Source of the DNA: a virus
IMG/VR virus record: IMGVR_UViG_3300045988_132703
DNA: 64,000 nt
Direction: 5' to 3' (one strand)
Shown here: positions 19,177 through 64,000 of the stretch, piece after piece
Numbering within the stretch: position 1 is the stretch's first letter
How the letters are laid out: each line of letters starts with the position of its first letter
Program-made: the position numbers and the translations under genes
Notes under the pieces: generated by a model
Database searches by the model: none
Told to the model about the DNA's origin: nothing
Seen by the model: the letters and a program-made list of their open reading frames with translations, nothing else

Positions 19177-19188
19177 GAGGTGATTGAA

Positions 19189-19512: not shown

Positions 19513-19515
19513 CCT

Positions 19516-39619: not shown

Positions 39620-39933
39620 GTGAAGAAAAAATTAAGCAGATTCAAGAGGAATATGCTAAAGATCCTGTATATAGTCACGTCGCAAAGAAGTGTGGAACAA
39701 CCGCGGCAACCGTAAAGAAATATGTATCTGGTGAAGTACCAGCTCCCGCAAAGAAAAAGAAAGATGCCGATCTCATTTATTTTGAAGACATTTCTAAACG
39801 GCTTCTTGAAGATGGCCCTATTGAGCCGCTTCCAGTCGACCAGATTAAACTCCCCGATAATTTCAAGTCGTGGACTATCCTCACCGATGCTGAACGCGCA
39901 GCGATGAATCTTAACTATATTTCAAAATATTAA
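39607..39933 (+). CDS. putative HTH DNA-binding protein
   Basis: SHVAKKCGTTAATVKKYVSG helix-turn-helix-like segment. Confidence 0.45.
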   Translation: MARLSEEKIKQIQEEYAKDPVYSHVAKKCGTTAATVKKYVSGEVPAPAKKKKDADLIYFEDISKRLLEDGPIEPLPVDQIKLPDNFKSWTILTDAERAAMNLNYISKY

Positions 39934-42721: not shown

Positions 42722-42889
42722 ATGAGTAAAGCAAAATTGTTATCGCCTGAATGGTCTTCTATTGCCAAATGGTGCGAAGAAGTTGGGGTAAATCAATCAT
42801 CCGAACTGTTAAAATCAATGAGGACATGACAGATATTTATATGGATTTGCTTTCTGATGAATGGTTTGATGAAGAGAAAGGAAAAGAAT

Positions 42890-43555
42890 ATGGATTTTAA
42901 TAAGTATCCGAAAATCGAGACTTGTTTTCAGCGTTCTCTTGAGACTAAAAAACTGCTTAATGATGTCTGGCGCTCGGATGAGCTTCAGTACCTCAAGGAT
43001 TGTGAGTGGATTTGGACTGAGAAGGTCGATGGCACCAATATCCAGATTCATTGGGATGGGCATCGAGTTGAGTTCGGTGGTCGTACTGAGCGTGCGAACA
43101 TTCCTCAGCCGCTGATGGATTATCTTGAGACTACTTTTGGCGGAGAGGTTAATGAGGAGATTTTCGAGCAGCTCTTTGGCGAGACTGAGGTTGTCCTCTT
43201 TGGTGAGGGTTACGGTCCGAAGATTCAGAGTGGTGGCGGCTATCGTAAAGATGTTAGCTTTATTCTGTTCGATGTGAAGATTGGCAACTTCTGGCTTCTG
43301 CGTGACAAGGTTGAGGAGATTGCTAAGCAGCTTAACATTGATGTGGTTCCGCTGATTGGCTATGGGCCTATCCAGTTTGCTATTGATTTTGTCGAGGAGC
43401 ATCCAATGTCGCGGGTTGCACAGAATAATGGCGGCAGTGGTTGTTATATGGAGGGTTTGGTTGGCACTCCGACTGTGGGACTACTTCGCCGTAATGGTGA
43501 GCGCATCCAGGTGAAAATTAAGTGGAATGATTTTAAAGAGTTTGTAGAGGAGTAA
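42890..43555 (+). CDS. ATP-dependent RNA ligase-like nucleotidyltransferase
   Basis: Motif I EKVDGTN (KxDGxN), FGEGYG, EGLVG, QVKIKW; ATG 42890 inside track ORF 42857-43555. Confidence 0.7.
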   Translation: MDFNKYPKIETCFQRSLETKKLLNDVWRSDELQYLKDCEWIWTEKVDGTNIQIHWDGHRVEFGGRTERANIPQPLMDYLETTFGGEVNEEIFEQLFGETEVVLFGEGYGPKIQSGGGYRKDVSFILFDVKIGNFWLLRDKVEEIAKQLNIDVVPLIGYGPIQFAIDFVEEHPMSRVAQNNGGSGCYMEGLVGTPTVGLLRRNGERIQVKIKWNDFKEFVEE

Positions 43556-43558
43556 AAA

Positions 43559-44503
43559 TTGATTAATTTTATTTTTATTATTGGGCTGGCAGTGCTGGTT
43601 ATCGGCGCAATTGTTGCGTTCAATAAGGAATCGGTGATTGGAGCTATTACCTCGGTCATCCTTGGTGCAGCAATTGCCTTGTTTGGTATGTCGTTTGTTA
43701 TCATTCCTTCTGGCTATACTGGTGTAAAAACCACTTTTGGTCAGATTGCAGAAGAGACTTTGCCAAATGGTTTCAATTGGAAAGCTCCTTTCATTGAATC
43801 TATTGAGATTGTAAATAACAAGCAACAGGATGTTGGCTTCGCGCAGAAAGATTCCAAAATTTGGGGCGAGACCTCTGAAAAGGTTCCTGTTTATATGGCA
43901 GACGTAACTGTTACTTATCAGATTGATAATGAAAAGTCTGCATGGATTTATGCTAACGTCAGTGACTACAAGAGTCAGCTGATTAGTGACGCAATGGTTG
44001 CGAGCGCTCTAAAGAATGCTGCTGTTCAGTTTACTGCTGAACAGGTAACTATTCGCTCTAATATTGAGCCTACCGCGCAGAAAGAGCTTCAGGAATCCCT
44101 TAATAATAAATATGGCGAAAATGTTGTTCATATCCTCAAAGTTGTGATTAATAATATGGATTTTGAGGATAGTTACAACGAAGCTATCAATCAGAAGAAC
44201 CTTGCCGCGAAGCAGGCAGAAGCTCAGGCTATTCAGAACCAGATTGAGATTGATAAAGCAACTAAGGATGCTGAGACTCAGCGTATTGCCGCTGAAGCTC
44301 AGGCAACCGCAGAAACCGCAAAAGCACAGGGCGAAGCTGACGCAATTCGTATTAAGGTAGAAGCCGAAGCTGAAGCAAACCGTAAGCTGTCTGAAAGTTT
44401 AACTGATAATGTTTTGCGAAACAAACTGTACGATAAGTGGAACGGTGAACTTCCCAAAGTTAGCAATGATTCTGCGCCGCTTGTAAGCATTCCTCTTGAA
44501 TAA
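43559..44503 (+). CDS. SPFH/band-7 (prohibitin/HflC-like) membrane protein
   Basis: N-terminal TM helices, GYTGVKTTFGQI start of the SPFH fold, C-terminal AEAQA/EAEA coiled-coil. Confidence 0.7.
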   Translation: MINFIFIIGLAVLVIGAIVAFNKESVIGAITSVILGAAIALFGMSFVIIPSGYTGVKTTFGQIAEETLPNGFNWKAPFIESIEIVNNKQQDVGFAQKDSKIWGETSEKVPVYMADVTVTYQIDNEKSAWIYANVSDYKSQLISDAMVASALKNAAVQFTAEQVTIRSNIEPTAQKELQESLNNKYGENVVHILKVVINNMDFEDSYNEAINQKNLAAKQAEAQAIQNQIEIDKATKDAETQRIAAEAQATAETAKAQGEADAIRIKVEAEAEANRKLSESLTDNVLRNKLYDKWNGELPKVSNDSAPLVSIPLE

Positions 44504-53498: not shown

Positions 53499-54130
53499 AA
53501 AAGAGAAAATTAAGAGAAAGAAAGAAAGAAAGAAAGGACGAAGCCTTAACCATCGGGGATAATGCAGCGCTAGTGAGCGAGATTGGGCTTGCCGCAAGCG
53601 CAGCGGGAGGCAAGGCGAATAACGAAGCGAACGGTGCGAGCGACAGCGAGCGCTCAAATGAAATAATAAATTAGAAAAGAAAAAGAGAACCCTATCGCTG
53701 CACTAAAAAGCGATAGGGTTCAATTTATATAATTAAGAAATTAAATAAAGAGAAAGAGAGAGAAAAAGAGGGAGGTGGGAGAGGGAGAAGAAAGAGGGAG
53801 AGGGAAGGGAAGAGAAGAAGAGAAAAGAAGAAAGAGGGAGAGGAAAATGGGATAAGAAGGAGAGAAAAAGAAGGAGAGAAAATGAAAAATGAAAATAAAA
53901 TGAGAGGGAGAGGGGTACAATTCGGGCTAAAGAGAGAAAATCAAAGCAATCCAAAATCCAAAAATTAGAAAAAAATGACACTTAGAGGGAGAGGGAGAGG
54001 GATTGAAGTTAAGAAATTAAATAGAAAGAGAAGGAAAAAGAAAGAAAGAAAAGAAAAATGAAAAAGAGGGAGAGGGAAAAAGAAGGATAAAGAGAGAGAG
54101 AAAAAGAGGAAGAACGAGAAAACTCCCCGC
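53499..54130 (+). repeat. polypurine (A/G) tract on the + strand with AGAGGGAGAGG iterons
   Basis: 53733-54130 is over 90 percent purine by eye; AGAGGGAGAGG at 53793, 53833, 53903, 53983 (tandem) and 54065; TTAAGAAATTAAATA at 53732 and 54008. Confidence 0.85.
53687..53721. other. 13-bp perfect hairpin inside the purine-rich region
   Basis: GAACCCTATCGCT-gcactaaaa-AGCGATAGGGTTC. Confidence 0.6.
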
Positions 54131-54923: not shown

Positions 54924-54943
54924 GTTTTTGAGTTCGGCGCGAA

Positions 54944-54980
54944 TAAAAAAAGATGCGCAGAATCATCCGCGCATCCTTTT
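54944..54980. terminator. bidirectional hairpin terminator
   Basis: A7-GATGCGC-(10 nt)-GCGCATC-CTTTT. Confidence 0.45.
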
Positions 54981-55293
54981 GATGTACTACTCGATCTTTT
55001 TAAACTCAATCAGCTGAGATTCTAATTGAGTTATGCCATTTTGAATTTGATTTGTACTTTTGAGTTGATCATTTTGATTGAAAACTCTTGACTTTGGCTG
55101 GCTTTTGGAGCTTAAAACTCCAGAATTTTGAGCACCTTCGCTCTCAAAACCCTACCAGTCAAGTAGAAAATGAGCGCCAAACTGATTTGACGATACTACG
55201 CACTTTTTATTTGGCGTAGCTACGTCGATTTTTTCAACGCTGGAACGCGATTTATTTTCATCGTTCCTATGTCTTTTCTCATTTTCTATAAAT

Positions 55294-55322
55294 ATTATAT
55301 CATATATTTGCTCTTGAGTCAA
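55294..55322 (-). promoter_or_regulatory. early cassette promoter copy on the minus strand
   Basis: Minus strand TTGACT-17-TATAAT followed by ATTTATAGAAAATGAGAAAAG leader; no convincing ORF downstream. Confidence 0.6.
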
Positions 55323-55408
55323 TAATTTGACGTAGCAGCGTTATTTTTGGCTTGAAAAGTTACGATTTAGGTACAATTTTGCGCATTTTTATTCATTTGT
55401 GCGCCCGA

Positions 55409-55430
55409 TTGTTAAATTTTTAACAAAGTT
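55409..55430. repeat. module A (AT-rich palindrome)
   Basis: TTGTTAAATTTTTAACAAAGTT. Confidence 0.6.
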
Positions 55431-55538
55431 CGCGCTAAAAAATAACGATAAGACGCGAAAAATTGCTGGAAATAACTGGAAAATTGAATTTTTGAATAAA
55501 TATTCAAGAAAAAAGTTTTATTTTACTCGAAAAAATAC

Positions 55539-55567
55539 TTGACATATTGCAAAAAGTATGGTAAAAT
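55539..55567 (+). promoter_or_regulatory. sigma70-type promoter facing the repeat array
   Basis: TTGACA-17-TAAAAT, TGg extension. Confidence 0.55.
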
Positions 55568-55596
55568 GGTATTGTGGAAGAGTGTTGACTATTTTT

Positions 55597-55702
55597 GGCC
55601 CGGTTAGTTAGCTATGACTAACTTTGCCCGGGTGAAACTAGTTAATCATGCCTAACCTCTTGCCCGGGTAAAATTGCCGGGACGAGTTAGTTATAACTAA
55701 CC
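55597..55702. repeat. array of three C-type palindromes interleaved with four (G)CCCGG(G) boxes
   Basis: GGCCCGG-GTTAGTTAGCTATGACTAAC..GCCCGGG..AGTTAATCATGCCTAAC..GCCCGGG..GCCGGG..AGTTAGTTATAACTAAC. Confidence 0.75.
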
Positions 55703-55723
55703 ATAGAGTTCTCCTCCCCTTTT

Positions 55724-55752
55724 ATTATAACATAAAAGATAGGACTTGTCAA
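55724..55752 (-). promoter_or_regulatory. sigma70-type promoter facing the repeat array
   Basis: Minus strand TTGACA-17-TATAAT, then GGAGGAG and a 5-codon ORF. Confidence 0.55.
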
Positions 55753-55755
55753 GCC

Positions 55756-55805
55756 TGTTATTTATTTAACAATGTTTTGCCCGGGCAAGTTAGGCATGAC
55801 TAACT
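55756..55805. repeat. A-B-C intergenic module
   Basis: TGTTATTTATTTAACAATG / GCCCGGGC / AGTTAGGCATGACTAACT. Confidence 0.75.
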
Positions 55806-55811
55806 TCGAGT

Positions 55812-55843
55812 CAAAAGAAAAGAGGGTGAATCACTTCACCCTC
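55812..55843 (-). terminator. terminator of 55851-56171
   Basis: Minus strand GAGGGTGAA-gtga-TTCACCCTC then TTTTCTTTT. Confidence 0.65.
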
Positions 55844-55850
55844 GATTCTG

Positions 55851-56171
55851 TCAAGCCTTCTTCTTGGCGGCACGCTCCTGAGCCTTGCGTTCCTTTTCAG
55901 CGGCCTTTTCCACGGCTACGCGCTCCTTTTCCTCGCGCTCAAATTCCCAATCACCGCAAGCCTGCTCAATGTCGAACGCAGGCACCTTGTCAGTGGCAAT
56001 AGGGTTGGCGCAAGTAAACGCAATCTTTACCCAGCAGGTCACACCGTCAACCTCAGTAGGCAGTGCAAAAGTCGATGCGCCAATCTGACGCGCACTCTCA
56101 GGCAGAATCATGCCGATGATGTTAGACTTAGCAGTGGACAGAATCTCGGACTTCTTCATAGTGGTAGCCAT
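55851..56171 (-). CDS. small protein with Lys/Ala/Glu-rich basic tail, paralog 1
   Basis: MATTMKKSEILS.. N-domain; tail EKERVAVEKAAEKERKAQERAAKKKA; GC-richer. Confidence 0.65.
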   Translation of the reverse strand: MATTMKKSEILSTAKSNIIGMILPESARQIGASTFALPTEVDGVTCWVKIAFTCANPIATDKVPAFDIEQACGDWEFEREEKERVAVEKAAEKERKAQERAAKKKA

Positions 56172-56245
56172 AGTAAACCTCTTTCTCCTACACTTTCGGC
56201 AGTAGGCGCTCTGTTTTAAGTTCTGCTCTCTTTGAGAACATATTC

Positions 56246-56274
56246 ATTATACCATAGGTTGCGAAGTTTGTCAA
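56246..56274 (-). promoter_or_regulatory. promoter of 55851-56171
   Basis: Minus strand TTGACA-17-TATAAT, TGg extension. Confidence 0.65.
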
Positions 56275-56380
56275 GAGTTTTTTGAATTTTTCCTGTTGCT
56301 CTGTCGTTGAGTTATTCGCTCTCTTGAAGTTTCCGTTCCCTTTGGAGTGATTATAGTATATCATACTCTCAGGAAAATAG

Positions 56381-56430
56381 ACATAGACAAATCAATCAAG
56401 AATATGGACAAACGTTGCACCGCGCCCGGG
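56381..56430. repeat. about 50-bp intergenic repeat, copy 1
   Basis: ACATAGACAAATCAATCAAGAATATGGACAAACGTTGCACCGCGCCCGGG. Confidence 0.7.
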
Positions 56431-56456
56431 CGCGCTTCGTTAAATTTTTAACAAAG
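56424..56456. repeat. B-A module
   Basis: GCCCGGGC then CGTTAAATTTTTAACAAAG. Confidence 0.7.
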
Positions 56457-56464
56457 TAGAATAT

Positions 56465-56492
56465 AAGAAAAGGGGCAAGATTTTCTTGCCCC
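56465..56492 (-). terminator. terminator of 56499-56903
   Basis: Minus strand GGGGCAAG-aaaat-CTTGCCCC then TTTTCTT. Confidence 0.7.
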
Positions 56493-56498
56493 AATTCA

Positions 56499-56903
56499 TT
56501 ACTGCTCGACAGAATCGCCCTCGGCGTCAGTGTTTGCGGCTTCACGCTTGGCCTTCTTGGCGGCTTTTACCGCGTCACGCTGGGCTTTCGCGCGTGCCTT
56601 TTCAGCGTCTTTACGCGCCTTTTCAGCAAGGCGTGCCTGCTTTGCGTCCTCACGCGCCTTAACAGTGAAGTCATACTCCTCCGAGGCAGCGGCAAGATCA
56701 TAAGCCTTTGCCTTTTCAGTATCCGCATAGCGGTGTGCGGCAACCTTAACGGTCATCGGCACATCAATCTCGGTCTCACCGTCTTTGACGGTGACATACA
56801 TACCGAACTCTGCACCATCAACCTGATACGGCAGGTCTGCCAGCTTCAGCTGGGCGATAATCTGCTGACGGGCGGCTTCCATAATTTCAAACTGCTTCAT
56901 CAT
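56499..56903 (-). CDS. small protein with basic tail, paralog 2
   Basis: ATG at 56903 after AAAGAGG; tail AKQARLAEKARKDAEKARAKAQRDAVKAAKKAKREA. Confidence 0.65.
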   Translation of the reverse strand: MMKQFEIMEAARQQIIAQLKLADLPYQVDGAEFGMYVTVKDGETEIDVPMTVKVAAHRYADTEKAKAYDLAAASEEYDFTVKAREDAKQARLAEKARKDAEKARAKAQRDAVKAAKKAKREAANTDAEGDSVEQ

Positions 56904-56969
56904 AAGTGTACCTCTTTCTCTCACTCTTGGCTGTGAGCGCCTTGTTCTGTACCCCTTTGGAGTATCTTT

Positions 56970-56998
56970 ATTATATCACAGTCAGTGGAATTTGTCAA
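56970..56998 (-). promoter_or_regulatory. promoter of 56499-56903
   Basis: Minus strand TTGACA-17-TATAAT, TGa extension. Confidence 0.65.
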
Positions 56999-57085
56999 GC
57001 GTTTTTTTAGAATTTCTTTTGAAGTTCTTCGCTTGCTTTCCTCTCTTGACTGTATATATAGTATACCATAGCAATGCATAAATGA

Positions 57086-57134
57086 ACATAGACAAATCAT
57101 GCAAGAACATGGATAAATGTTGCAGGCGCCCGGG
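57086..57134. repeat. about 50-bp intergenic repeat, copy 2
   Basis: ACATAGACAAATCATGCAAGAACATGGATAAATGTTGCAGGCGCCCGGG. Confidence 0.7.
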
Positions 57135-57156
57135 CGCGAGTTAGGTATGACTAACT
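57128..57156. repeat. B-C module
   Basis: GCCCGGGC then AGTTAGGTATGACTAACT. Confidence 0.7.
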
Positions 57157-57160
57157 CAAA

Positions 57161-57197
57161 AGAAAAAGAAAAGAGCCGTTCTGATTTTGAACGGCTC
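57161..57197 (-). terminator. terminator of 57204-58004
   Basis: Minus strand GAGCCGTTC-aaaatca-GAACGGCTC then TTTTCTTTTT. Confidence 0.7.
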
Positions 57198-57203
57198 AAT
57201 TTT

Positions 57204-58004
57204 TTATAGTGCGGCCAACTTTTTACGCAGTTCCTTCAACTCTTTTTCGAGTTCTTCAATTTCGGACTGAATCTCAATTTTCTTCGCGGCAACTTTCTTT
57301 TGATTGCGGCGATTGATTTTTTGCGCCTTCTGCCATACGCCACCACGCGGAGTTTTGTCCAGCTTTTTGTGCATAGCTAAGCACTTTTTCAAAATTAACG
57401 CTTCTATGTTGGAATCGTCAATGCCTTTGTGCTGTTCGACAAACTCAAAATTTCCAGTCAAAAAACGGTAGGCACATTCCGCATTTGTAAGAATGTTTCC
57501 CTTTTCAGATACCCAGCCCTGCGCAATAGCGGTCTTATAGTAGTCATTACCAGCAAGGAACGCACAAGCGGCCATATTCCAAATACAGTACAGCCGAACG
57601 CCCTTTTTCCAAAACCATTTATAACGACCGTCCGTTGAAAAATTCATGAGATTGTTAAGAGCGCGGCGGTCAAAAGCCATGTTGTAAGCGTAGCACTCTT
57701 TGCAATTAAACTGCGCTAAATCGTCGAAAAAAGTCTTTCGCGCGAAATATGCGCTGACAAGTTGTTTTTTGCCTGCCCAAATATCCTCCCAATAAGAAGG
57801 AACCTTTTGAACGTAATAGGCCGAATCCATCAGCGTATTATCGAGAAAAATTTCTTTAATAACAAAAGAACGGCGGCAAATCTCGCGCATCTCTGCGCCC
57901 TCGTACAAAATGTAAGAGAAGTCATAAGGGAGGGGCTTATTCAAACCCCCTGCAGTTTCAGTATCGAGAACGCAACGAATCTTTTTTTTACTCAATGGGT
58001 GCAA
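57204..58004 (-). CDS. DEDDh (DnaQ-like) 3'-5' exonuclease with C-terminal coiled coil
   Basis: VLDTETAG (ExoI), YNMAFDRRAL (ExoII), HKGIDDSNIEAL (ExoIII, H-x4-D). Confidence 0.7.
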   Translation of the reverse strand: MHPLSKKKIRCVLDTETAGGLNKPLPYDFSYILYEGAEMREICRRSFVIKEIFLDNTLMDSAYYVQKVPSYWEDIWAGKKQLVSAYFARKTFFDDLAQFNCKECYAYNMAFDRRALNNLMNFSTDGRYKWFWKKGVRLYCIWNMAACAFLAGNDYYKTAIAQGWVSEKGNILTNAECAYRFLTGNFEFVEQHKGIDDSNIEALILKKCLAMHKKLDKTPRGGVWQKAQKINRRNQKKVAAKKIEIQSEIEELEKELKELRKKLAAL

Positions 58005-58035
58005 CCTCTTTCTGTTAATTTTTTAGAACATTATT

Positions 58036-58064
58036 ATTATAACAGACTGTATACAATTTGTCAA
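58036..58064 (-). promoter_or_regulatory. promoter of 57204-58004
   Basis: Minus strand TTGACA-17-TATAAT. Confidence 0.6.
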
Positions 58065-58118
58065 GTCAAAAGACAAAAGAATTTTCAAATGAATTTTATG
58101 CAATATGCCGAAAATGAG

Positions 58119-58172
58119 AGTTAGGCTTGACTAACCGCGTCCGGGCAGCCGCTTGTTAAATTTTTCACAAAG
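58119..58172. repeat. C-B-A module
   Basis: AGTTAGGCTTGACTAACC / TCCGGGC / TTGTTAAATTTTTCACAAAG. Confidence 0.7.
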
Positions 58173-58217
58173 TTGGGTCAAAAGAAAAGAGAGCGCATTT
58201 CTGCGCCCTCAATTCTA

Positions 58218-58586
58218 TCAAGCCTTTTCGGCGTCACGAGCCGCCTTTTCTGCGGCACGCTTGGCACGGCGGTCAGCGTCAGCCTTGACCTTATCGTCAT
58301 GCTTGCGCTTGCGCTCTGCGGCCTTTGCGGCGGATTCCGCCAGCTCTGCCTGATACTTCTCGACCGCATCGTCAAGGTCGAACGCGGCGACCTTTTCGGT
58401 GGCAATGGGGTTCGCGGCAGTCACCGCAATCTTGGTGTAGGTCTGGTTGCCCTCATAGTCGATAGAGGGGATAGCCCACAGGCCAGAGCCAATCTGGACA
58501 GCACCGAGGGCTTCCAGATTCAGCTTTGCAAGGGTGTCAGCCTTGATAGCGGAAAGCAGGTCGGACTTCTTCATAGTGTTAGCCAT
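58218..58586 (-). CDS. small protein with basic tail, paralog 3
   Basis: MANTMKKSDLLS.. N-domain closely matches 55851-56171; tail AAERKRKHDDKVKADADRRAKRAAEKAARDAEKA. Confidence 0.65.
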   Translation of the reverse strand: MANTMKKSDLLSAIKADTLAKLNLEALGAVQIGSGLWAIPSIDYEGNQTYTKIAVTAANPIATEKVAAFDLDDAVEKYQAELAESAAKAAERKRKHDDKVKADADRRAKRAAEKAARDAEKA

Positions 58587-58654
58587 AAGATACCTCTTTC
58601 TCTTGCAGTCAGTCGCAAGTCACTTTGTTTTTCTGTTCCTCTTGGAACATCTTT

Positions 58655-58683
58655 ATTATAGCACAGTCGAGAGCGTTTGTCAA
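58655..58683 (-). promoter_or_regulatory. promoter of 58218-58586
   Basis: Minus strand TTGACA-17-TATAAT, TGc extension. Confidence 0.65.
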
Positions 58684-58778
58684 GAATTTTTTTTATTTTT
58701 TTTTGAACTCTTTGTGAGTGATTTCTTATTCCGTTCCCTTGACTGTATATATAGTATAGCACAACTAAACGCTAATGG

Positions 58779-58826
58779 ACATAGACAAATCGTGCAAGAA
58801 CATGGATAAATGTTGCGCCGTGCCCG
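58779..58826. repeat. about 50-bp intergenic repeat, copy 3
   Basis: ACATAGACAAATCGTGCAAGAACATGGATAAATGTTGCGCCGTGCCCGG. Confidence 0.7.
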
Positions 58827-58830
58827 GACG

Positions 58831-58856
58831 AAAAAGAAGTCCCATAAAAGGGACTC
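58831..58856 (-). terminator. terminator of 58864-59268
   Basis: Minus strand AGTCCC-ttttat-GGGACT then TCTTTTT. Confidence 0.55.
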
Positions 58857-58863
58857 CAATTTG

Positions 58864-59268
58864 TTACACCAAAGAGTAGTAAGCATTTGTATTTTTAACA
58901 ACCAGCTTTGTGTGGTCGCTATTAAATTTACATCTATTACCACAAGCCTGGCAATTTCTGGTATCCGCTGAATAGCTACACCAATCTTCAAGGGGAATTT
59001 CCAGCGTGCCTTCGTCAACTTCTTCACGCTTAACAAGTCCCATCTTGACGAGCCGCCGACAACAAGCAGCAATCATCTCAACAGTAACACCGCGAGGGAA
59101 ACCAACATTATCATTGACCCACTGGCGAATTTCTTTGCATCGTACAGGGCGATTCATATCTTGAAGCGCGTGATAAACGCAATCAGTGCACATGAGCTGC
59201 CACGCAGGAGCGGACAGCATAGGGAAAGCGCGAAGAATGTTTTCGTTGCAATCAATAACAATAGACAT
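58864..59268 (-). CDS. putative winged-helix protein with C-terminal Cys cluster
   Basis: ATG at 59268 after GAAAGAGG; ..RRLVKMGLVKRE.. then C..CQACGNRC. Confidence 0.5.
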   Translation of the reverse strand: MSIVIDCNENILRAFPMLSAPAWQLMCTDCVYHALQDMNRPVRCKEIRQWVNDNVGFPRGVTVEMIAACCRRLVKMGLVKREEVDEGTLEIPLEDWCSYSADTRNCQACGNRCKFNSDHTKLVVKNTNAYYSLV

Positions 59269-59310
59269 ATTAGTTACCTCTTTCTTTCTTTTCTCTCTTG
59301 GTGTACCTAT

Positions 59311-59339
59311 ATTATATATCATTTGCTCTTGAATGTCAA
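59311..59339 (-). promoter_or_regulatory. promoter of 58864-59268
   Basis: Minus strand TTGACA-17-TATAAT. Confidence 0.6.
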
Positions 59340-59353
59340 TAGGTAAAGTGAAA

Positions 59354-59403
59354 GTTATTTATTTAACAATGTCTTGCCCGGGCGCAGTTAGGCTTAACTA
59401 ACT
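59354..59403. repeat. A-B-C module between divergent promoters
   Basis: GTTATTTATTTAACAATG / GCCCGGGC / AGTTAGGCTTAACTAACT. Confidence 0.75.
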
Positions 59404-59421
59404 ATTTTGCAAAAATAATGC

Positions 59422-59450
59422 TTGACTTTTGAACGCGGCTGTGCTATACT
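59422..59450 (+). promoter_or_regulatory. promoter of kinase-like gene
   Basis: TTGACT-17-TATACT, TGc extension. Confidence 0.6.
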
Positions 59451-59475
59451 AATAATAAAGAAAGCGAGGTACGCA

Positions 59476-60111
59476 ATGAAAATCACAAAACTCAAATTTG
59501 AAACCGATTTTCCTATCGACTTTTTCTTGGTCCTCAATACTTGCCCTCGGAATAAAGAGAAACGTTATTGGTGGGCAATCAATTTTGCTAAAGAATGGGG
59601 GCTTGAAGTTCACAGCGGCATGACGCGCGTTGCTTTTGTGTTTGATGATTTTGCAATCAAACTTGATATTAACTCTACCACTAACGGTTGTGAGGAAGAA
59701 TACAAGCGTTTCCAGGTTGCACGCGAATATGGAATTGAACGAATCCTTTTGACCATTGAAAAATGGTACACCTCGCCGCGTGGTGTTACTTTTTACATTC
59801 AGCCCAAATGCGGCGAATTGGTGTACGATTATGATGCCGATGAATATACAGACACCTTTAATGCAGTAGCAAGCACTTTGGAACATCAAGGTTATTGCAG
59901 GCGTAAAATTAGACGCTATATCGATAAAATGCCTTACGAAATCGAGGAGATGGAATGGGTAGGTCGTTGTGTGCAATATTACGGTTGGAAATTTATGCAC
60001 CGTCTGATGGACTGGATGCAAGATTATAACATCACGGATTTGCACGGCGGGAATATTGGCTTTGTAGCGCACAATCGCCCTGTAATTTTTGATTACGCAG
60101 GCGTGAGATAG
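59476..60111 (+). CDS. protein-kinase-fold protein
   Basis: FAIKLD (beta3 Lys), EEEYKRF (helix C Glu), TDLHGGNIG (catalytic loop), IFDYAG (DFG-like); ends at TAG 60109, next in-frame TAA 60127. Confidence 0.6.
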   Translation: MKITKLKFETDFPIDFFLVLNTCPRNKEKRYWWAINFAKEWGLEVHSGMTRVAFVFDDFAIKLDINSTTNGCEEEYKRFQVAREYGIERILLTIEKWYTSPRGVTFYIQPKCGELVYDYDADEYTDTFNAVASTLEHQGYCRRKIRRYIDKMPYEIEEMEWVGRCVQYYGWKFMHRLMDWMQDYNITDLHGGNIGFVAHNRPVIFDYAGVR

Positions 60112-60117
60112 TCAGCT

Positions 60118-60149
60118 GGGTCACATTAAATGTGACCCTTTTATTTTTT
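60118..60149 (+). terminator. terminator of kinase-like gene
   Basis: GGGTCACAT-taa-ATGTGACCC then TTTTATTTTTT. Confidence 0.7.
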
Positions 60150-60155
60150 ATGCAG

Positions 60156-60202
60156 AGTTAGGTGCAACTAACTGTGCCCGGGTGGATTAGGTACGACTAA
60201 CT
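60156..60202. repeat. C-B-C module
   Basis: AGTTAGGTGCAACTAACT / GCCCGGG / ATTAGGTACGACTAACT. Confidence 0.7.
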
Positions 60203-60212
60203 ACACACAAAA

Positions 60213-60233
60213 TAAAAACCCGCCGAAGCGGGC
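60213..60233 (-). terminator. terminator of 60238-60456
   Basis: Minus strand CCCGC-ttcg-GCGGG then TTTTT. Confidence 0.6.
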
Positions 60234-60237
60234 AAAT

Positions 60238-60456
60238 TCATTCCTTAAACTTTACATTCATAAAGACTTCTACTTTTTCATCAGCCGTGAAGAATACGGG
60301 CAAACCATTCGAGAGCATCACGGCATTATACAGTCGATTCTGCGCGATAAAACGCGGAACAACCAAACACAGTCTACCGTGAGGATAACGAACATAATCA
60401 CCCACCTCTGTATTACCAAACAGAGATAAAGTTTTTTCGGTAAGGTTAATCTGCAT
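60238..60456 (-). CDS. small beta-rich protein, family member
   Basis: Track ORF; FGNTEVGDYV...NAVMLSNG..VFF pattern shared with 62491, 63388 and 63633 genes. Confidence 0.55.
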   Translation of the reverse strand: MQINLTEKTLSLFGNTEVGDYVRYPHGRLCLVVPRFIAQNRLYNAVMLSNGLPVFFTADEKVEVFMNVKFKE

Positions 60457-60556
60457 AGATACCAGCTCCTATTGATAAATTAAAATGCTTGACGGGAGTT
60501 TTCTGGCTTGACTATTGCCTTGCCTACCCGTTAGTTCATTTCCTTTTGATGTATTT

Positions 60557-60585
60557 ATCATATCATACTTAATCCCGATTGTCAA
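60557..60585 (-). promoter_or_regulatory. promoter of 60238-60456
   Basis: Minus strand TTGACA-17-TATGAT, TGa extension. Confidence 0.55.
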
Positions 60586-60742
60586 GAGCTTTGCGGCAAA
60601 TTTCTTTGTTGATTTTGCGCATCTTACGCGTACAGTCATGCTTATCTTGACGGATAGAGTTTAACCGCGCGTGCTGACAGTAAAAGTGACGCGCAAACTT
60701 ATCCTCAAAGGTCAGTTTCTTTTTCTCGTTTTTTGCAGCCAT
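60569..60742 (-). CDS. hypothetical small basic protein
   Basis: 57-codon ORF MAAKNEKKKLTFEDKF..; AAAGGAGA SD; own promoter 60764-60792. Confidence 0.4.
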   Translation of the reverse strand: MAAKNEKKKLTFEDKFARHFYCQHARLNSIRQDKHDCTRKMRKINKEICRKALDNRD

Positions 60743-60763
60743 ACTATCGTCTCCTTTTTCTAT

Positions 60764-60792
60764 ATTATACTATATATAAAGTAAAATGTTAA
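60764..60792 (-). promoter_or_regulatory. promoter of 60569-60742
   Basis: Minus strand TTAACA-17-TATAAT. Confidence 0.5.
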
Positions 60793-60794
60793 GC

Positions 60795-60844
60795 GTTATT
60801 TATTTAACAAAGTTCGCCCGGCGGATGGTTAGGCATAACTAACT
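60795..60844. repeat. A-B-C module between divergent promoters
   Basis: GTTATTTATTTAACAAAG / GCCCGGC / GGTTAGGCATAACTAACT. Confidence 0.75.
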
Positions 60845-60857
60845 TTAAAAATAATGC

Positions 60858-60886
60858 TTGACATTTCGGGATAATTATGCTATAAT
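60858..60886 (+). promoter_or_regulatory. promoter of 60907-61251
   Basis: TTGACA-17-TATAAT, TGc extension. Confidence 0.65.
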
Positions 60887-60906
60887 AAATACATCAAAAG
60901 GAGGTA

Positions 60907-61251
60907 ATGAATATGAAGAAAATGATCGAAATGGATTGCTGCGATGTTTGCGGCAAACCGATATATATGTCGCCTAAGTATATTAACAGCTATGCTTTCA
61001 AGAACGGCAATGGACAGCAATTTGATGCAGTTCTTTGTGAGGATTGTTTAGAAAATAACAAAGTCTTTGAGTGCGCAGGTTGCGGTTGCTATCTGCGTAA
61101 TGAAGATGCTTTCCATGTAGATTGCTACGACTACTGTGAGCAGTGTGCTGAAGAAGTGCTCGAAGATAAGCGTCAGGAAATCAAAGATCTGGAGGGTAAT
61201 TTGAAAAACGCAAGAGAAGCGTTCGAACGCCGTAAGGTAGAGAGGGAGTAA
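60907..61251 (+). CDS. Cys-rich zinc-binding protein
   Basis: CCDVCG...CEDC...CAGCGC...CEQC; GGAGG SD. Confidence 0.6.
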   Translation: MNMKKMIEMDCCDVCGKPIYMSPKYINSYAFKNGNGQQFDAVLCEDCLENNKVFECAGCGCYLRNEDAFHVDCYDYCEQCAEEVLEDKRQEIKDLEGNLKNAREAFERRKVERE

Positions 61252-61268
61252 TCCCTCTTTTTTATTTT
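61241..61268 (+). terminator. terminator of 60907-61251
   Basis: AGAGGGA-gtaa-TCCCTCT then TTTTTATTTT. Confidence 0.65.
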
Positions 61269-61269
61269 G

Positions 61270-61320
61270 ATTAGTTAGTCATAACTAATTTGCCCGGGTA
61301 GCAGTTAGCTTTAACTAACT
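61270..61320. repeat. C-B-C module
   Basis: ATTAGTTAGTCATAACTAAT / GCCCGGG / AGTTAGCTTTAACTAACT. Confidence 0.7.
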
Positions 61321-61329
61321 CTTGATATT

Positions 61330-61353
61330 AAAAAAGAGGGCTTTTCAGCCCTC
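61330..61353 (-). terminator. terminator of 61358-61648
   Basis: Minus strand GAGGGCT-gaaa-AGCCCTC then TTTTTT. Confidence 0.65.
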
Positions 61354-61357
61354 AAAA

Positions 61358-61648
61358 TTATTTTGACTTAATCGAGATACCTCCGCGAAGCAAAGCGAAA
61401 GCAATATAAATGCCCCAGAAATTAAGCTCTGGAATTGCTGGCAGAAATGTAAACCACGGTAAGAGCATTAGCACATAAAAGGCATACCATAAATGCGCAC
61501 TAAGCAACAAAAGTGCGATGCAAAGTCCAAGGGCGCTCAGCATCAAGCCCATGCTGTCTTTATTTTCATTTAAGGCTTGTAACAGCTCAACAAAAACCAA
61601 CAGCCCGACAAAGTACGCAATCAGCAAAAACCAAAACATTAGATACAC
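61358..61648 (-). CDS. membrane protein (3 TM)
   Basis: Track ORF; almost entirely hydrophobic. Confidence 0.55.
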   Translation of the reverse strand: MYLMFWFLLIAYFVGLLVFVELLQALNENKDSMGLMLSALGLCIALLLLSAHLWYAFYVLMLLPWFTFLPAIPELNFWGIYIAFALLRGGISIKSK

Positions 61649-61827
61649 CCCTTTACCTTGTATGTCATAATGTAATTACGGCGATTCTTGCACTTTTCGT
61701 AGCGCTGGCGTTCCTTTGCTTGGCGATAGGCAATTTCGGGATTGCCCTTAAACTCGATAGGGTCGAGCTTACCACAATTTAGGACAAAGCCATAGTTTTC
61801 ATCAACTTCATAACCGAAAACCTGCAT
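61639..61827 (-). CDS. hypothetical protein
   Basis: Track ORF behind promoter 61860-61888. Confidence 0.5.
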   Translation of the reverse strand: MQVFGYEVDENYGFVLNCGKLDPIEFKGNPEIAYRQAKERQRYEKCKNRRNYIMTYKVKGCI

Positions 61828-61859
61828 TTTATTTTACCTCTCTTTCAGTTTCTATAATT

Positions 61860-61888
61860 ATTATACCATACATTCGCACCATTGTCAA
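61860..61888 (-). promoter_or_regulatory. promoter of 61827-61358 unit
   Basis: Minus strand TTGACA-17-TATAAT, TGg extension. Confidence 0.65.
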
Positions 61889-61891
61889 GAG

Positions 61892-62314
61892 TTATTTCCA
61901 TTCAATATCTTGCGATTCAATCTCTTGCACATCGTAATTTTCATCGAGGGTAAACATTTTGTCTGCGGTCATGAACATCAAACTATAAGGTCCGATGTCA
62001 TTGTCTGCGGCAACAAGCCAAACCTCTTTACCTTTTGCCTTTGCATAACCAATCTCCCACGCCGCACCGTCATCGGATTTATAACCATAGGAGATACACA
62101 CGACAAGGTCAGCCGCATCAAGCTGTTTATGGTCTTCCTCAAAGATTTTCTTTGCCCAAACATGGTTGGGCAGTTCCCATGCATTGGGCACTTGAAAATC
62201 CTGCGGGCAGTAGATAGTTGCGCCGCGGAAAATGGTTTTCAGCCACTTTTCAATGTGCTTAACATTTCTCTGTTCCCATTTGTGAAAAAGCGGACTTGCG
62301 ATGTAGATATTCAT
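61892..62314 (-). CDS. nucleoside 2-deoxyribosyltransferase-like protein
   Basis: MNIYIASPLF N-terminus and DDGAAWEIGYAKAKGK typical of the NDT/Rcl fold. Confidence 0.6.
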   Translation of the reverse strand: MNIYIASPLFHKWEQRNVKHIEKWLKTIFRGATIYCPQDFQVPNAWELPNHVWAKKIFEEDHKQLDAADLVVCISYGYKSDDGAAWEIGYAKAKGKEVWLVAADNDIGPYSLMFMTADKMFTLDENYDVQEIESQDIEWK

Positions 62315-62347
62315 TTTCTTTGTTCCTTTCTCTCTTGGTGTAATTAT

Positions 62348-62376
62348 ATTATACAGTATTGAACGCGAAATATCAA
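62348..62376 (-). promoter_or_regulatory. promoter of 61892-62314
   Basis: Minus strand TTGATA-17-TATAAT. Confidence 0.55.
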
Positions 62377-62428
62377 GGATTATTTTATGAAGATTTGTAT
62401 TATTGATTTGTACTTTTGATGCGCGGCA

Positions 62429-62454
62429 CCCGGGCGAGTTAGATATAACTAACT
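62429..62454. repeat. B-C module
   Basis: CCCGGG then AGTTAGATATAACTAACT. Confidence 0.7.
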
Positions 62455-62461
62455 CTCAATC

Positions 62462-62484
62462 AAAAGAAAACCGCCCGAAGGCGG
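62462..62484 (-). terminator. terminator of 62491-62700
   Basis: Minus strand CCGCC-ttcg-GGCGG then TTTTCTTTT. Confidence 0.6.
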
Positions 62485-62490
62485 ATAGAA

Positions 62491-62700
62491 TCAAAGAACT
62501 TTTAATTCTATTTCAGTATCTTCAACCTCTTGATCAGAATCAAAATATGTTGTTTTTTCTCCTTTCAAAAGGTCAATGACGTCATTGGCACTAATTTTAA
62601 TATAAACTCTTCCTTCATACTGAAAAAATTCACCGAGTTTAAAAGTACCAAACGGAAGAAATACTTTAGAGGATATCAATTTTGCAAAAGACATAATCAA
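62491..62700 (-). CDS. small beta-rich protein, family member
   Basis: FGTFKLGEFFQYEGRVYIKI. Confidence 0.55.
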   Translation of the reverse strand: MIMSFAKLISSKVFLPFGTFKLGEFFQYEGRVYIKISANDVIDLLKGEKTTYFDSDQEVEDTEIELKVL

Positions 62701-63155
62701 AAACCACCTTTCTTAATCAGCTCAAAAAGTTTTTCAGCCGTTACGGCCTTGCCACCGTGTTTTTCCCACGCAGACAAATTCTGTTCTTCGTCATCAAAAA
62801 GAATCGTATTAGTGCGATTTTCTGGGCGGACAATCGACCATTTGGGAACGCCGTAAGCAACCACATGAATTTCTTCCGCATAGGGGAAAAACTTTGCAAG
62901 CCACGCCTTTTTTACCTTGCGGATTTCAGCGTTGAAACCCTTGTTATTTTCTTTAGAACACCAGCTGATAATGCCGATACCAAAACCCTGAGCCTGCAAA
63001 ATCTGCACGATTTCTGCAAACTGTTCAGTCGTGAACAGCGGCTCTGCCACAGCGTAGGGGCGAGGGTCATGAGCCATCAGACAGTCAAGCCAACCGTCCA
63101 CGCCGTAGAAGTTAGCAATCGTGCCATCCATGTCGAAGTAAGCCATTTTTTTCAT
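62697..63155 (-). CDS. HAD-family 5'(3')-deoxyribonucleotidase-like protein
   Basis: YFDMDGTIANF (DxDGT motif I), ILFDDEEQN (motif IV); ATG at 63155 after AAAGGAACAAACAG. Confidence 0.6.
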   Translation of the reverse strand: MKKMAYFDMDGTIANFYGVDGWLDCLMAHDPRPYAVAEPLFTTEQFAEIVQILQAQGFGIGIISWCSKENNKGFNAEIRKVKKAWLAKFFPYAEEIHVVAYGVPKWSIVRPENRTNTILFDDEEQNLSAWEKHGGKAVTAEKLFELIKKGGF

Positions 63156-63189
63156 ATCTGTTTGTTCCTTTCTCTCTTGGTGTATATAT

Positions 63190-63218
63190 AGTATAGCATA
63201 CCCTGCGGCTTTTGTCAA
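63190..63218 (-). promoter_or_regulatory. promoter of 63155-62491 unit
   Basis: Minus strand TTGACA-17-TATACT, TGc extension. Confidence 0.6.
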
Positions 63219-63269
63219 CAGATTTTTTTATGGACATTTATATTATTGATTTGTACTTTTGACGCAGCG

Positions 63270-63299
63270 GCCCGGGCAGCACTTTGTTAAATAATTAAC
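63270..63299. repeat. B-A module
   Basis: GCCCGGGC then TTTGTTAAATAATTAAC. Confidence 0.65.
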
Positions 63300-63313
63300 T
63301 TTCGTTTTGAGTA

Positions 63314-63342
63314 TTGACAAATGAGGAAAAGTATAGTATAAT
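63314..63342 (+). promoter_or_regulatory. promoter of 63388-63893 unit
   Basis: TTGACA-17-TATAAT. Confidence 0.65.
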
Positions 63343-63387
63343 ATAAGTACACCAAGAGAAAAGGACAAATGAAAGGAAATTTTAGTT

Positions 63388-63624
63388 ATGAAGGTTTCTG
63401 TTATTCCTGAGGATTATATCTCTTACGCCTTTGGAAATGTGAAAATTGGCGATATGTTTCAGGACAATGAAGGAACATGGTTTATGAAAGTTGAGTATGA
63501 GGATGAAAACTGCGATAGACAAGACGTATTTGGATTGAGCCTTGAAGATGGAACACTATACGTTTTTAATGATAAAGAACCTATCATGCGGTTTTTCACG
63601 CCGTCCGCAATCACTGTCCAATAA
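63388..63624 (+). CDS. small beta-rich protein, family member
   Basis: FGNVKIGDMFQDNEGTWFMKV...LEDGTLYVF. Confidence 0.55.
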   Translation: MKVSVIPEDYISYAFGNVKIGDMFQDNEGTWFMKVEYEDENCDRQDVFGLSLEDGTLYVFNDKEPIMRFFTPSAITVQ

Positions 63625-63632
63625 AAGGAGAA

Positions 63633-63893
63633 ATGAATATGAATAAAATTAAATGCGAAATCCCGAGCAACATTTTTGAAAATTTCCCCGTTGGCACTAT
63701 TTTCTCAAATGATGGCGATTTTTACATCAAAATCAATCAAGATGAAATTTTAAATAACCTTGAGTATTCAGAGGAAGTTGACAAGGGCAATATACCGAAT
63801 GCTGTTCGTTTAAGTGACGGTAAGGCTGCGTATTTCAATGATCGAGACAGAATTGACATGATTTATTTTAATACTACGCTATCAATCAGCTGA
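63633..63893 (+). CDS. small beta-rich protein, family member
   Basis: FENFPVGTIFSNDGDFYIKI...LSDGKAAYF. Confidence 0.55.
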   Translation: MNMNKIKCEIPSNIFENFPVGTIFSNDGDFYIKINQDEILNNLEYSEEVDKGNIPNAVRLSDGKAAYFNDRDRIDMIYFNTTLSIS

Positions 63894-63898
63894 ACTTC

Positions 63899-63925
63899 GC
63901 GCCCTTCATGGGCGCATTTTTTTTT
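63899..63925 (+). terminator. terminator of 63388-63893 unit
   Basis: GCGCCC-ttcat-GGGCGC then A-T9. Confidence 0.65.
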
Positions 63926-63933
63926 GTATCAAA

Positions 63934-63979
63934 AGTTAGTTGAGACTAATCCGCCCGGGCAAGTTAATCATGCCTAACT
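63934..63979. repeat. C-B-C module
   Basis: AGTTAGTTGAGACTAAT / GCCCGGGC / AGTTAATCATGCCTAACT. Confidence 0.7.
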
Positions 63980-64000
63980 CAAGGTAAAATTAAAACCGCC

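Follow-up and report, generated by a model that had tools for sequence, protein, structure and literature searches.

In the host-takeover module of Bacillus phage SPO1, small early genes each carry a strong host-type promoter and a terminator, and to our knowledge no equivalent conserved palindromes mark their boundaries. Cluster A stoperators, as in the temperate mycobacteriophage L5, are asymmetric 13-bp sites that are oriented with transcription and bound by the phage immunity repressor, and the repetitive extragenic palindromic (REP) sequences and bacterial interspersed mosaic elements (BIMEs) of enterobacteria form extragenic mosaics of short palindromes and linkers that often follow terminators and bind host proteins. 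Integron attC sites are imperfect single-strand structures of 57–141 bp that are recombined by IntI, the cassettes themselves being promoterless. In T4-type phages, the promoter-early stem-loops (PeSLs) constitute a further set of intergenic motifs (Arbiol et al. 2010, PMC2839356; Comeau et al. 2014, PMC4122927). Here we describe the intergenic modules in the right arm (54.3–64 kb) of a 64,000-nucleotide stretch of viral DNA (IMG/VR record IMGVR_UViG_3300045988_132703; "the window" hereafter means this whole stretch), which is part of a large phage-like genome. Inspection of the sequence together with a promoter and terminator scan of the window revealed that all junctions between transcription units in this arm are centred on a CCCGGG palindrome (module B) that carries one further element (module A, C, D or D3) per side. 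With moderate confidence, we read the modules as protein sites on duplex DNA, placed around a universal boundary palindrome, that would regulate or insulate the early units and also serve as joints for their shuffling.

The arm resembles PeSL-bearing regions in that composite terminator/promoter motifs with sigma-70-like promoters lie between orphan open reading frames (ORFans) in a plastic early region, that the crossovers of indels and replacements between close relatives fall inside the motifs, and that the motifs hold a GC-rich element (GGGG..CCCC in PeSLs, GCCCGGGC here). However, PeSLs belong to T4-like myoviruses, whereas a megablast search with the arm gave no match among 50,697 phage records and the nearest cultured protein relatives are Firmicutes phages. 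The window represents an unrelated, uncultivated Firmicutes-type clade. Its additional sequence-specific palindromes (B, C, A and D) serve as neither promoters nor terminators; B is moreover a loop-less palindrome of 8–12 bp that is conserved across deep lineages, and the units occur in both orientations. The formation of cassette mini-circles during infection is a further feature of PeSLs. Many short sites in small intergenic gaps across a gene set also recall the stoperators, which act on passing transcription, but the sites of the window (A, B and C) have dyad symmetry, fall into several kinds and are arranged around B, and a weak polarity of the C spacers is independent of gene orientation. 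The SPO1 module shares the clustering of small early genes with their own promoter and terminator, with no sequence relationship.

Inverted repeats that mark cassette boundaries are likewise found in integrons, and GTTAGGC/GCCTAAC happens to fit the GTTRRRY/RYYYAAC pattern of attC; the dyads of the window are nevertheless perfect and 16–50 bp long, each cassette has its own promoter, and no integrase was found among the scanned proteins. As for REP/BIME elements or miniature inverted-repeat transposable elements (MITEs), no unit-level insertion polymorphism, dispersal in hosts or cognate transposase was found, neither a REP-type sequence nor a REP-associated tyrosine transposase (RAYT) is present, and the units are tied to promoters and cassette boundaries. 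Resemblances to integron attC, to TnrA sites (which have the wrong spacing) and to the controlling inverted repeat of chaperone expression (CIRCE) were considered and dropped.

The arm belongs to known kinds of system, i.e., PeSL-like cassettes and operator regulons, and the concrete new lead consists of candidate boxes for the redox repressor Rex. The modules offer a readable grammar for an ORFan-rich early region, the least understood part of large phage genomes, in a clade that is known from gut and rumen metagenomes only. They carry the idea that a regulatory motif is also a shuffling joint beyond the T4-like phages, which have Gram-negative hosts, into an unrelated group, and provide a practical marker to find and delimit the early regions of this clade in metagenomes.

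Repeat modules occupy the intergenic regions of the right arm

In the window, tail genes are located at 18–23 kb and 14 tRNA genes at 26–38 kb, and genes run on the plus strand until ~54 kb. The right arm (54.3–64 kb) contains small genes on both strands, each with a near-consensus sigma-70-type promoter and an intrinsic terminator. The small proteins of this arm are ORFans, and Pfam and PHROGs searches with at least 25 window proteins yielded mostly ORFans and no recombinase, Rex or classical helix-turn-helix (HTH) family.

Exact matching in the window gave 11 copies of CCCGGG, six of GCCCGGGC, seven of AGTTAG-N6-CTAACT, ten of its shorter form GTTAG-N6-CTAAC (module C) and three of TTGATTTGTACTTTTGA (module D). 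Every copy of CCCGGG, GTTAG-N6-CTAAC and GTTA-W6-TAAC (module A) is situated within 55.4–64 kb, and a pattern scan of positions 1–55399 found none of the three. When dinucleotide shuffles of right-arm intergenic DNA alone (2945 bp) were taken as the baseline, CCCGGG was observed 11 times (vs. 0.17 in shuffles), GTTAG-N6-CTAAC 10 times (vs. 0.006; 15 vs. 0.09 when at most one mismatch was allowed) and GTTA-W6-TAAC six times (vs. 0.008). No A, B or C copy was found in the 18 right-arm coding regions, and a module cluster was present in 12 of the 14 intergenic regions. The modules are thus real, as an initial annotation of the window had proposed, with counts far above intergenic shuffles and an entirely intergenic location, and they are conserved and under selection. 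That annotation would have dropped the idea if the motifs did not keep their positions in related genomes; since they lie at the same positions in five to eight close relatives, this objection falls away.

The module definitions needed some revision. The formula initially given for A was one base too long and matches nothing, the actual module being 14 nt long (GTTATTTATTTAAC or GTTAAATTTTTAAC). B is indeed an exact palindrome, but several copies are degenerate, i.e., those at 58139 (GTCCGGGC), 60816 (GCCCGGCG), 62428 (ACCCGGGC), 58821 and 55401. The three copies of D (at 55047, 62403 and 63246) are exact, as annotated.

Junctions follow a grammar centred on module B

At tandem junctions the order is terminator-(C or A)-B-(A, D, D3 or C)-promoter, at divergent ones it is promoter-A-B-C-promoter or promoter-D-B-A-promoter, and at convergent ones terminator-C-B-C-terminator. 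The flanking element lies 2–8 nt from B and faces the neighbouring unit. In tandem junctions the terminator side of B is always occupied by one module, either C or a Rex-type A box, with A, C, D or D3 on the promoter side.

The leftmost unit (55401–55426) comprises a degenerate B (GCGCCCGA) followed by A in the form of a perfect 18-bp Rex-type box (TTGTTAAATTTTTAACAA, 55409–55426). A sigma-70-like promoter on the plus strand (55539–55567) then reads into an array at 55597–55701 (b 55597–55603, C 55606–55623, B 55626–55633, C′ 55640–55656, B 55662–55669, b 55676–55683 and C 55685–55701) that is kept in close relatives, and on which a consensus minus-strand promoter converges (55724–55752, with an indel breakpoint at its –35, 55746–55756). 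At 55757–55805, A (55757–55770), B (55779–55786) and C (55788–55805) follow, yielding the order terminator-C-B-A-promoter on the minus strand. D3, a minus-strand upstream region of ~100 nt with direct repeats (ACATRGAYAAAT) that is common to three paralogous cassettes, is located at 56331–56420 (further copies at 57036–57127 and 58729–58820), and is succeeded by B (56424–56431) and a Rex-like A with one mismatch (56437–56454). The unit at 57128–57156 (B 57128–57135, C 57139–57156) adjoins the terminator at 57173–57197, and the one at 58119–58170 consists of C (58119–58136), a degenerate B (58139–58146) and a Rex-like A with one mismatch (58153–58170). A lone degenerate B (TGCCCGGA, 58821–58828) lies between the terminator at 58836–58857 and D3.

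Divergent promoters enclose the A-B-C unit at 59354–59403 (–35 hexamers at 59334–59339 on the minus and 59422–59427 on the plus strand), a second A-B-C unit at 60795–60844 (A 60795–60808, degenerate B 60816–60823, C 60827–60844) and a D-B-A unit at 63246–63301 (D 63246–63262, B 63270–63277, A 63286–63299, Rex-like with two mismatches). C-B-C units are situated between convergent terminators at 60156–60203 (terminators 60118–60138 on the plus and 60218–60233 on the minus strand) and 61273–61320 (61239–61260 and 61336–61353, respectively), and a C-B-C′ unit (63934–63979) follows the terminator at 63899–63915, with a minus-strand terminator starting at ~63990. Finally, D (62403–62419), B (62428–62435) and C (62437–62454) form the unit at 62403–62454, with the minus-strand order terminator-C-B-D-promoter, and the third exact D copy (55047–55063) is located inside a promoter-to-terminator unit without an open reading frame (ORF).

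Every module order listed in the initial annotation was recovered at its place, although the B′-A unit at 55401–55426 and the b-C-B-C-B-b-C array had been overlooked. Placement between a terminator and the next promoter, or between divergent promoters, holds for the tandem and divergent units but not for the three C-B-C units between convergent terminators, which have no adjoining promoter. Moreover, the statement that A and C abut the –35 was loose, since A lies 14, 2, 4 and 14 nt, and C by eye 18 and 13 nt (19 and 14 nt in the script's convention), from a –35.

The minus-strand unit that holds the D copy at 55047 (54940–55322) runs from a consensus promoter (55322–55294) to a terminator (~54975–54940) without a convincing ORF, and may encode a non-coding RNA of ~330 nt. 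At 55539–55752, the two consensus promoters face each other across the gene-less 105-nt B/C array, a layout that is kept in the relatives, in which a second array (five C and two to three B copies) is found past the window's end. At 55684–55717 on the minus strand, a strong ribosome-binding site (GGAGG) and an ATG (55698–55700) open a 5-codon ORF (MVSYN*) that enters a C module; since this ATG is missing in some relatives, the ORF is probably the remnant leader of a lost cassette.

A second class of sigma-70-like promoters (TTGACT-17(TG)-TATAAT) was identified in the scanned region from 24 to 44 kb, comprising 11 promoters, all on the plus strand and interspersed with the 14 tRNA genes, with at least several of them joined directly to the T-tract of a preceding terminator (...TTTCTATTGACT). 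None of these carries B, C or A, which together with the empty scan of positions 1–55399 upholds the initial observation that the modules are absent from the cassette promoters at 24–53 kb. The modules therefore set one promoter class apart and are dispensable for promoter function as such.

Module B is universal among the phage lineages, its flanks are not

A scan of IMG/VR with the pattern CCCGGG-N2-6-AGTTAG-N6-CTAAC returned 81 B-C stretches on several dozen contigs, many of them 90–186 kb long and obtained from the rumen and the gut. Close relatives of the window (85–95% identity) make up seven contigs, and others could be aligned with it over the motifs alone. The lineages with unalignable flanks hold 10–22 CCCGGG copies per 10–20 kb, and share with the window a DEDDh exonuclease-like gene (57204–58004) and a HAD-like gene (62697–63155) at 25–47% identity. 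The homologue of the exonuclease-like protein in Enterococcus phage H1 is annotated as an exodeoxyribonuclease; the cultured phages with this gene (Enterococcus phage H1 and Phass-1) have no CCCGGG system. The exonuclease-like gene and the HAD-like phosphatase gene (minus strand) are the sole right-arm genes conserved throughout the clade, and as such form useful markers.

In related phage DNA, the consensus of B is YGCCCGGGCR (457 unique copies). An outgoing promoter or incoming terminator was located within 160 nt on at least one side for 96% of 452 B clusters (vs. 48% of random positions), and a promoter-plus-terminator pair for 37% (vs. 6%). The end of the terminator stem lies 30–40 nt from B in 127 of 236 cases (typically about 36 nt), and B and the –35 are separated by a median of 45 nt. 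A palindrome with 5-bp arms starts within ~10 nt of B on at least one side in 79% of copies (vs. 25% at random), but its identity differs by lineage, i.e., C, A, TTGTGCA/TGCACAA, TGGAAA..TTCCA or "ggttaca" repeats. B, rather than A or C, is therefore the universal core of the system, and flanks of the A and C type are lineage-dependent. Literature searches yielded nothing for the motif strings of C and of E (TTGTGCA), and nothing relevant for CCCGGG in combination with phage.

The B-C scan of 596 Gb of bacterial genomes gave 79 stretches, most of which were single hits in high-GC genomes that do not exceed a rough chance estimate. The remainder lay on short CCCGGG-rich contigs binned into metagenome-assembled genomes (MAGs) of Clostridia (Acutalibacteraceae, Oscillospiraceae, Ruminococcus and others). 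Since bacterial hits were either at or below the chance estimate or in phage-like contigs, the system is specific to phages, which probably infect a member of the Clostridia.

In relatives, the module-bearing arm ends ~16–19 kb past the equivalent of window position 54000 (e.g., at tile positions 17120–19526 of 3300045988_146933) at a conserved 450-aa protein, the C-terminus of which by eye resembles sigma region 4, and a Zn-finger protein. The arm is estimated at ~16 kb, of which the window would cover, from its start, about one-half to two-thirds. Terminase-like and portal-like ORFs are also present in the fetched tiles of further contigs of the clade.

Module A matches the clostridial Rex operator

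The clostridial Rex box has the consensus TTGTTAANNNNTTAACAA, i.e., TTGTTAA-N4-TTAACAA (Ravcheev 2012, as quoted in PMC5367854 and PMC9600882), and PMC9600882 applies it to an Oscillospiraceae species. Rex-type 18-bp boxes occur in the window at 55409 (exact), at 56437 and 58153 (one mismatch) and at 55755 and 63284 (two mismatches). With at most one mismatch, three boxes were thus found vs. 0.025 in simulations, and none elsewhere in the window; at two mismatches chance matches do occur (a coding-region hit at 61044 and three hits elsewhere in the window). Exact boxes recur in relatives, including at least three unalignable lineages. Among unique copies of A, a spacing of N4 is found in 36, N5 in nine and N3 in none, and the TT..AA flanks are kept in ~75% of copies. 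In their fit to the 18-bp consensus (zero to two mismatches), N4 spacing and flanks, the A copies of several lineages resemble Rex operators.

Rex operators are promoter-region sites at which the bound repressor blocks initiation until it is released by NADH. The A copies differ from these in that they belong to the early region of a phage, where most of them precede a promoter or directly follow a terminator and do not overlap the promoter itself, and three window copies (GTTATTTATTTAAC) retain one good half-site each. Two Rex-like copies end 4 and 14 nt ahead of a –35, and the three best ones are found on the terminator side of B at 90–160 nt from the next promoter. The scan of window proteins turned up no Rex-like protein, making the host Rex, or a protein of the same specificity, the obvious candidate for A; judged from the consensus match, A would most likely be bound by one of these. 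If Rex binding holds, this would be an example of a virulent-type phage that reads or rewires the host redox state via a host repressor.

Constraint and spacing point to sites on duplex DNA

In alignments of five to eight close relatives, variable columns amounted to 3% in A, 8% in promoter hexamers, 8% in terminators, 9% in the arms of C and 18% in the B core, as compared to 35% in other intergenic DNA and 57% in the C spacers. No compensatory changes were seen in the C arms among these relatives. Across 293 unique copies, the consensus of C is GTTAG-YYWWRR-CTAAC, palindromic through its centre, with a complementary central pair in 135 copies vs. 90 expected; this symmetry fits a dimer on duplex DNA, and would not be needed in a hairpin loop. 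C is not an intrinsic terminator either, as its stems are AT-rich and lack a T-run (vs. the GC-rich stem and T-run of the real terminators that adjoin it).

Spacing to the promoter provides a further constraint. In three contigs of one sub-clade (76–80% identical where alignable, with B 3–5 nt upstream of C), exactly 9 nt separate the end of C from the following –35 in 15, 9 and 7 promoters, respectively (31 in total), and A is found 14 nt from the –35 in 21 cases. The modules are positioned after terminator T-tracts and before promoters. When folded as RNA, single units are weak and the array is strong (z-scores of –3.8 and –4.7), because the B copies of the array pair with one another. In the window, the C spacers show a strand polarity of 10:2 (G/C...A on the plus strand) irrespective of gene orientation, which is not significant across independent lineages.

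Cassettes are gained, lost and replaced at the modules

Comparison of the window with its seven relatives revealed many cassette indels and replacements. The pure indels are flanked by direct repeats of 4–52 bp that correspond to B, to B-C, to a –35 or whole promoter, or to a conserved 5′ leader with its ribosome-binding site. B at 56424–56431 forms the exact joint of a cassette indel with inserts of 390–760 bp, and a 540-bp cassette indel is located at the B-C unit at 57128–57156 in relative 138203. Because the same short sequences stand at every junction, they are also the sites of cassette gain, loss and replacement, and the modules thus double as recombination joints. The variety of conserved regulatory sequences at which the joints occur suggests homologous or microhomology exchange rather than a B-specific recombinase. 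Cassette inversion through the palindromic joints was considered and rejected, as no inversion of at least 180 bp was present among the seven relatives.

Proposed function of the modules and alternative explanations

In the proposed model, the right arm is a run of self-contained early units, each with a sigma-70-type promoter, one or more small genes and an intrinsic terminator, arranged as T-C-B-X-P, P-A-B-C-P or T-C-B-C-T (with T a terminator, P a promoter and X any module). A, C and D would be double-stranded DNA sites for dimeric or repeat-binding regulators, with A most likely read by the host Rex or its equivalent in specificity and C most likely by a regulator encoded in the phage lineage. 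These sites might give promoters used by the host RNA polymerase a regulation that the 24–44 kb class does not have, and/or block read-through between units, and B may be read by a clade-conserved factor that marks or insulates the boundary. A bolder version, which we find possible but rather unlikely, holds that a clade of large Clostridia phages carries orientation-free early cassettes joined at a universal YGCCCGGGCR, which a conserved factor would read and which would act as an insulator or recombination joint, and wires in or soaks up host regulators via captured operators, the Rex box letting the early genes or the host metabolism respond to NADH/NAD+.

The initial proposal of regulon-wide sites for dimeric proteins agrees with the palindromic C, the constrained A modules and C arms, the 9-nt phasing, the Rex match and the module-free promoter class. 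It accounts less well for modules after terminators and between convergent terminators, for B as the core and for the use of modules as recombination joints, and the sites themselves are putative. A number of observations weigh against protein sites on duplex DNA. C spacers vary more than other intergenic DNA, which a simple operator model does not predict, and B has decayed at some orthologous sites among relatives. The distance from B to the –35 is variable, and B also occurs between convergent terminators without a nearby promoter, which sets it apart from classical promoter elements. Those Rex-like boxes that fit best occupy the terminator side of B rather than the usual position of a Rex repressor over the promoter, and a host Rex is presumed, as the evidence on the host consists of MAG binning, which hints at Clostridia/Oscillospirales. 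The sole HTH-like candidate in the window (58864–59268) has a weak fold match and is limited to close relatives. In a separate search for protein families that co-occur with C across lineages, crude clustering of ORFs from incomplete contig tiles returned exonuclease, HAD and packaging genes and some unknown families, and no convincing binder.

The recombination data raise the question whether the motifs are mainly linkers, like T4 PeSLs, that enable ORFan cassettes to be exchanged and add no regulation beyond promoter and terminator. The cassettes do encode ORFans, close relatives differ by indels whose breakpoints coincide with B, B-C, –35 boxes or ribosome-binding sites and whose joints are duplicated over 4–52 bp, and PeSLs have been described in the same terms, down to a comment on GGGC/GCCC motifs at the ends of T4 deletions. 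We nevertheless deem this unlikely: CCCGGG, GTTAG/CTAAC and the Rex box are kept exactly across unalignable lineages, for which selection on evolvability alone would be weak, the spacing of C to the –35 is fixed at exactly 9 nt, and the arms are constrained with free spacers, where homology patches would favour overall identity. Moreover, since recombination uses promoters and ribosome-binding sites as well, it would not require extra modules. A dedicated site-specific system, integron-like with self-expressed cassettes, with B as its core and C and A as accessory arms, would suit the palindromic B at every junction regardless of gene orientation, the 6-6-6 layout of C (as in a recombinase core site) and at least two independent cassette indels that are joined exactly at CCCGGG with 7–13 nt duplicated. 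This is very improbable given the other indels at promoters, ribosome-binding sites and 25–52 bp repeats, the lack of a recombinase among the window proteins scanned and of inversions of at least 180 bp among the seven relatives, and C spacers that differ between copies, which would block exchange by a tyrosine recombinase. Selfish miniature repeats of the REP/BIME or MITE kind fit poorly with units that occupy the same orthologous positions in all relatives, with indels that carry whole cassettes and no presence or absence of a unit only; despite the mosaic of short extragenic palindromes that is also seen in Escherichia coli BIMEs, the lack of target duplications and of a transposase, and a B-C pair that does not exceed the rough chance estimate in 596 Gb of bacterial genomes (phage-like contigs aside), render this explanation highly implausible.

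If the modules were decoys, the replicating genome, and especially its B/C arrays, would titrate host regulators, Rex among them, and thereby redirect the metabolism of the host. Exact Rex boxes away from promoters on the terminator side of B, gene-less arrays of three to five C copies that are kept in relatives, and the limitation of the sites to non-coding DNA would all be expected, but C and A stand at fixed phasing to the –35 in many promoters, C and B have no known host regulator and there are few Rex boxes per genome, so that we give decoys little credence. Quite improbable, too, is a role as RNA or single-stranded DNA hairpins in processing, stability or back-up termination of read-through transcripts. 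C can form a stem of 5–7 bp with a 6-nt loop and the extended B a GC stem of 4 bp, folding of some units exceeds that of shuffles (z about –2.3) and is strong for the array between its two promoters, and single-arm changes are transitions compatible with G-U pairs. Against this, the modules come after the T-tracts and before the promoters, their stems are short and AT-rich, the C consensus keeps its symmetry across the "loop", the arms are conserved in sequence without compensatory changes, two of the four single units tested show no folding advantage over shuffles on the strand used (z of –0.05 and –0.56), and Rfam at its gathering threshold reports tRNAs only.

Candidate DNA-binding proteins

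Among the binders suggested in the initial annotation, the 134-aa protein at 58864–59268 (minus strand), which adjoins the A-B-C unit and has a Cys-rich C-terminus, is still a candidate, with weak matches to PadR-like winged-helix folds (E-value of 5e-3, template modeling score of 0.41–0.5) of its moderate AlphaFold2 (AF2) model (predicted local distance difference test (pLDDT) of 72); its restriction to close relatives, among which it diverges faster than neighbouring genes, speaks against it. No family match was obtained for the other HTH suggestion (39607–39933), and the basic-tailed paralogs show no DNA-binding fold. The confident AF2 model of the latter (pLDDT of 89) consists of a domain of a helix and three strands followed by a charged helix of 50 residues; it had no significant match in the PDB, the top, non-significant hit being the anti-Thoeris sponge Tad1. 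These three small paralogs (55851–56171, 56499–56903 and 58218–58586, minus strand) are each encoded behind a 100-nt D3 upstream region. No protein stood out as a candidate binder of B.

Neighbouring features of the window

To the left of the arm, ~380 nt at 53730–54110 are almost purely purine on the plus strand, giving a CU-rich minus strand with many CCUC/CUCC stretches that resemble anti-Shine-Dalgarno sequences. A strong minus-strand terminator follows at 53715–53675, relatives share the tract at 87–90% identity, and the window changes the sign of its GC skew at this place. Elsewhere, genes for a nucleoside 2-deoxyribosyltransferase (61892–62314), an RNA ligase (42857–43555) and an SPFH/Band-7 protein (43559–44503) were identified, which together with the HAD-like enzyme hint at nucleotide salvage or DNA base modification.

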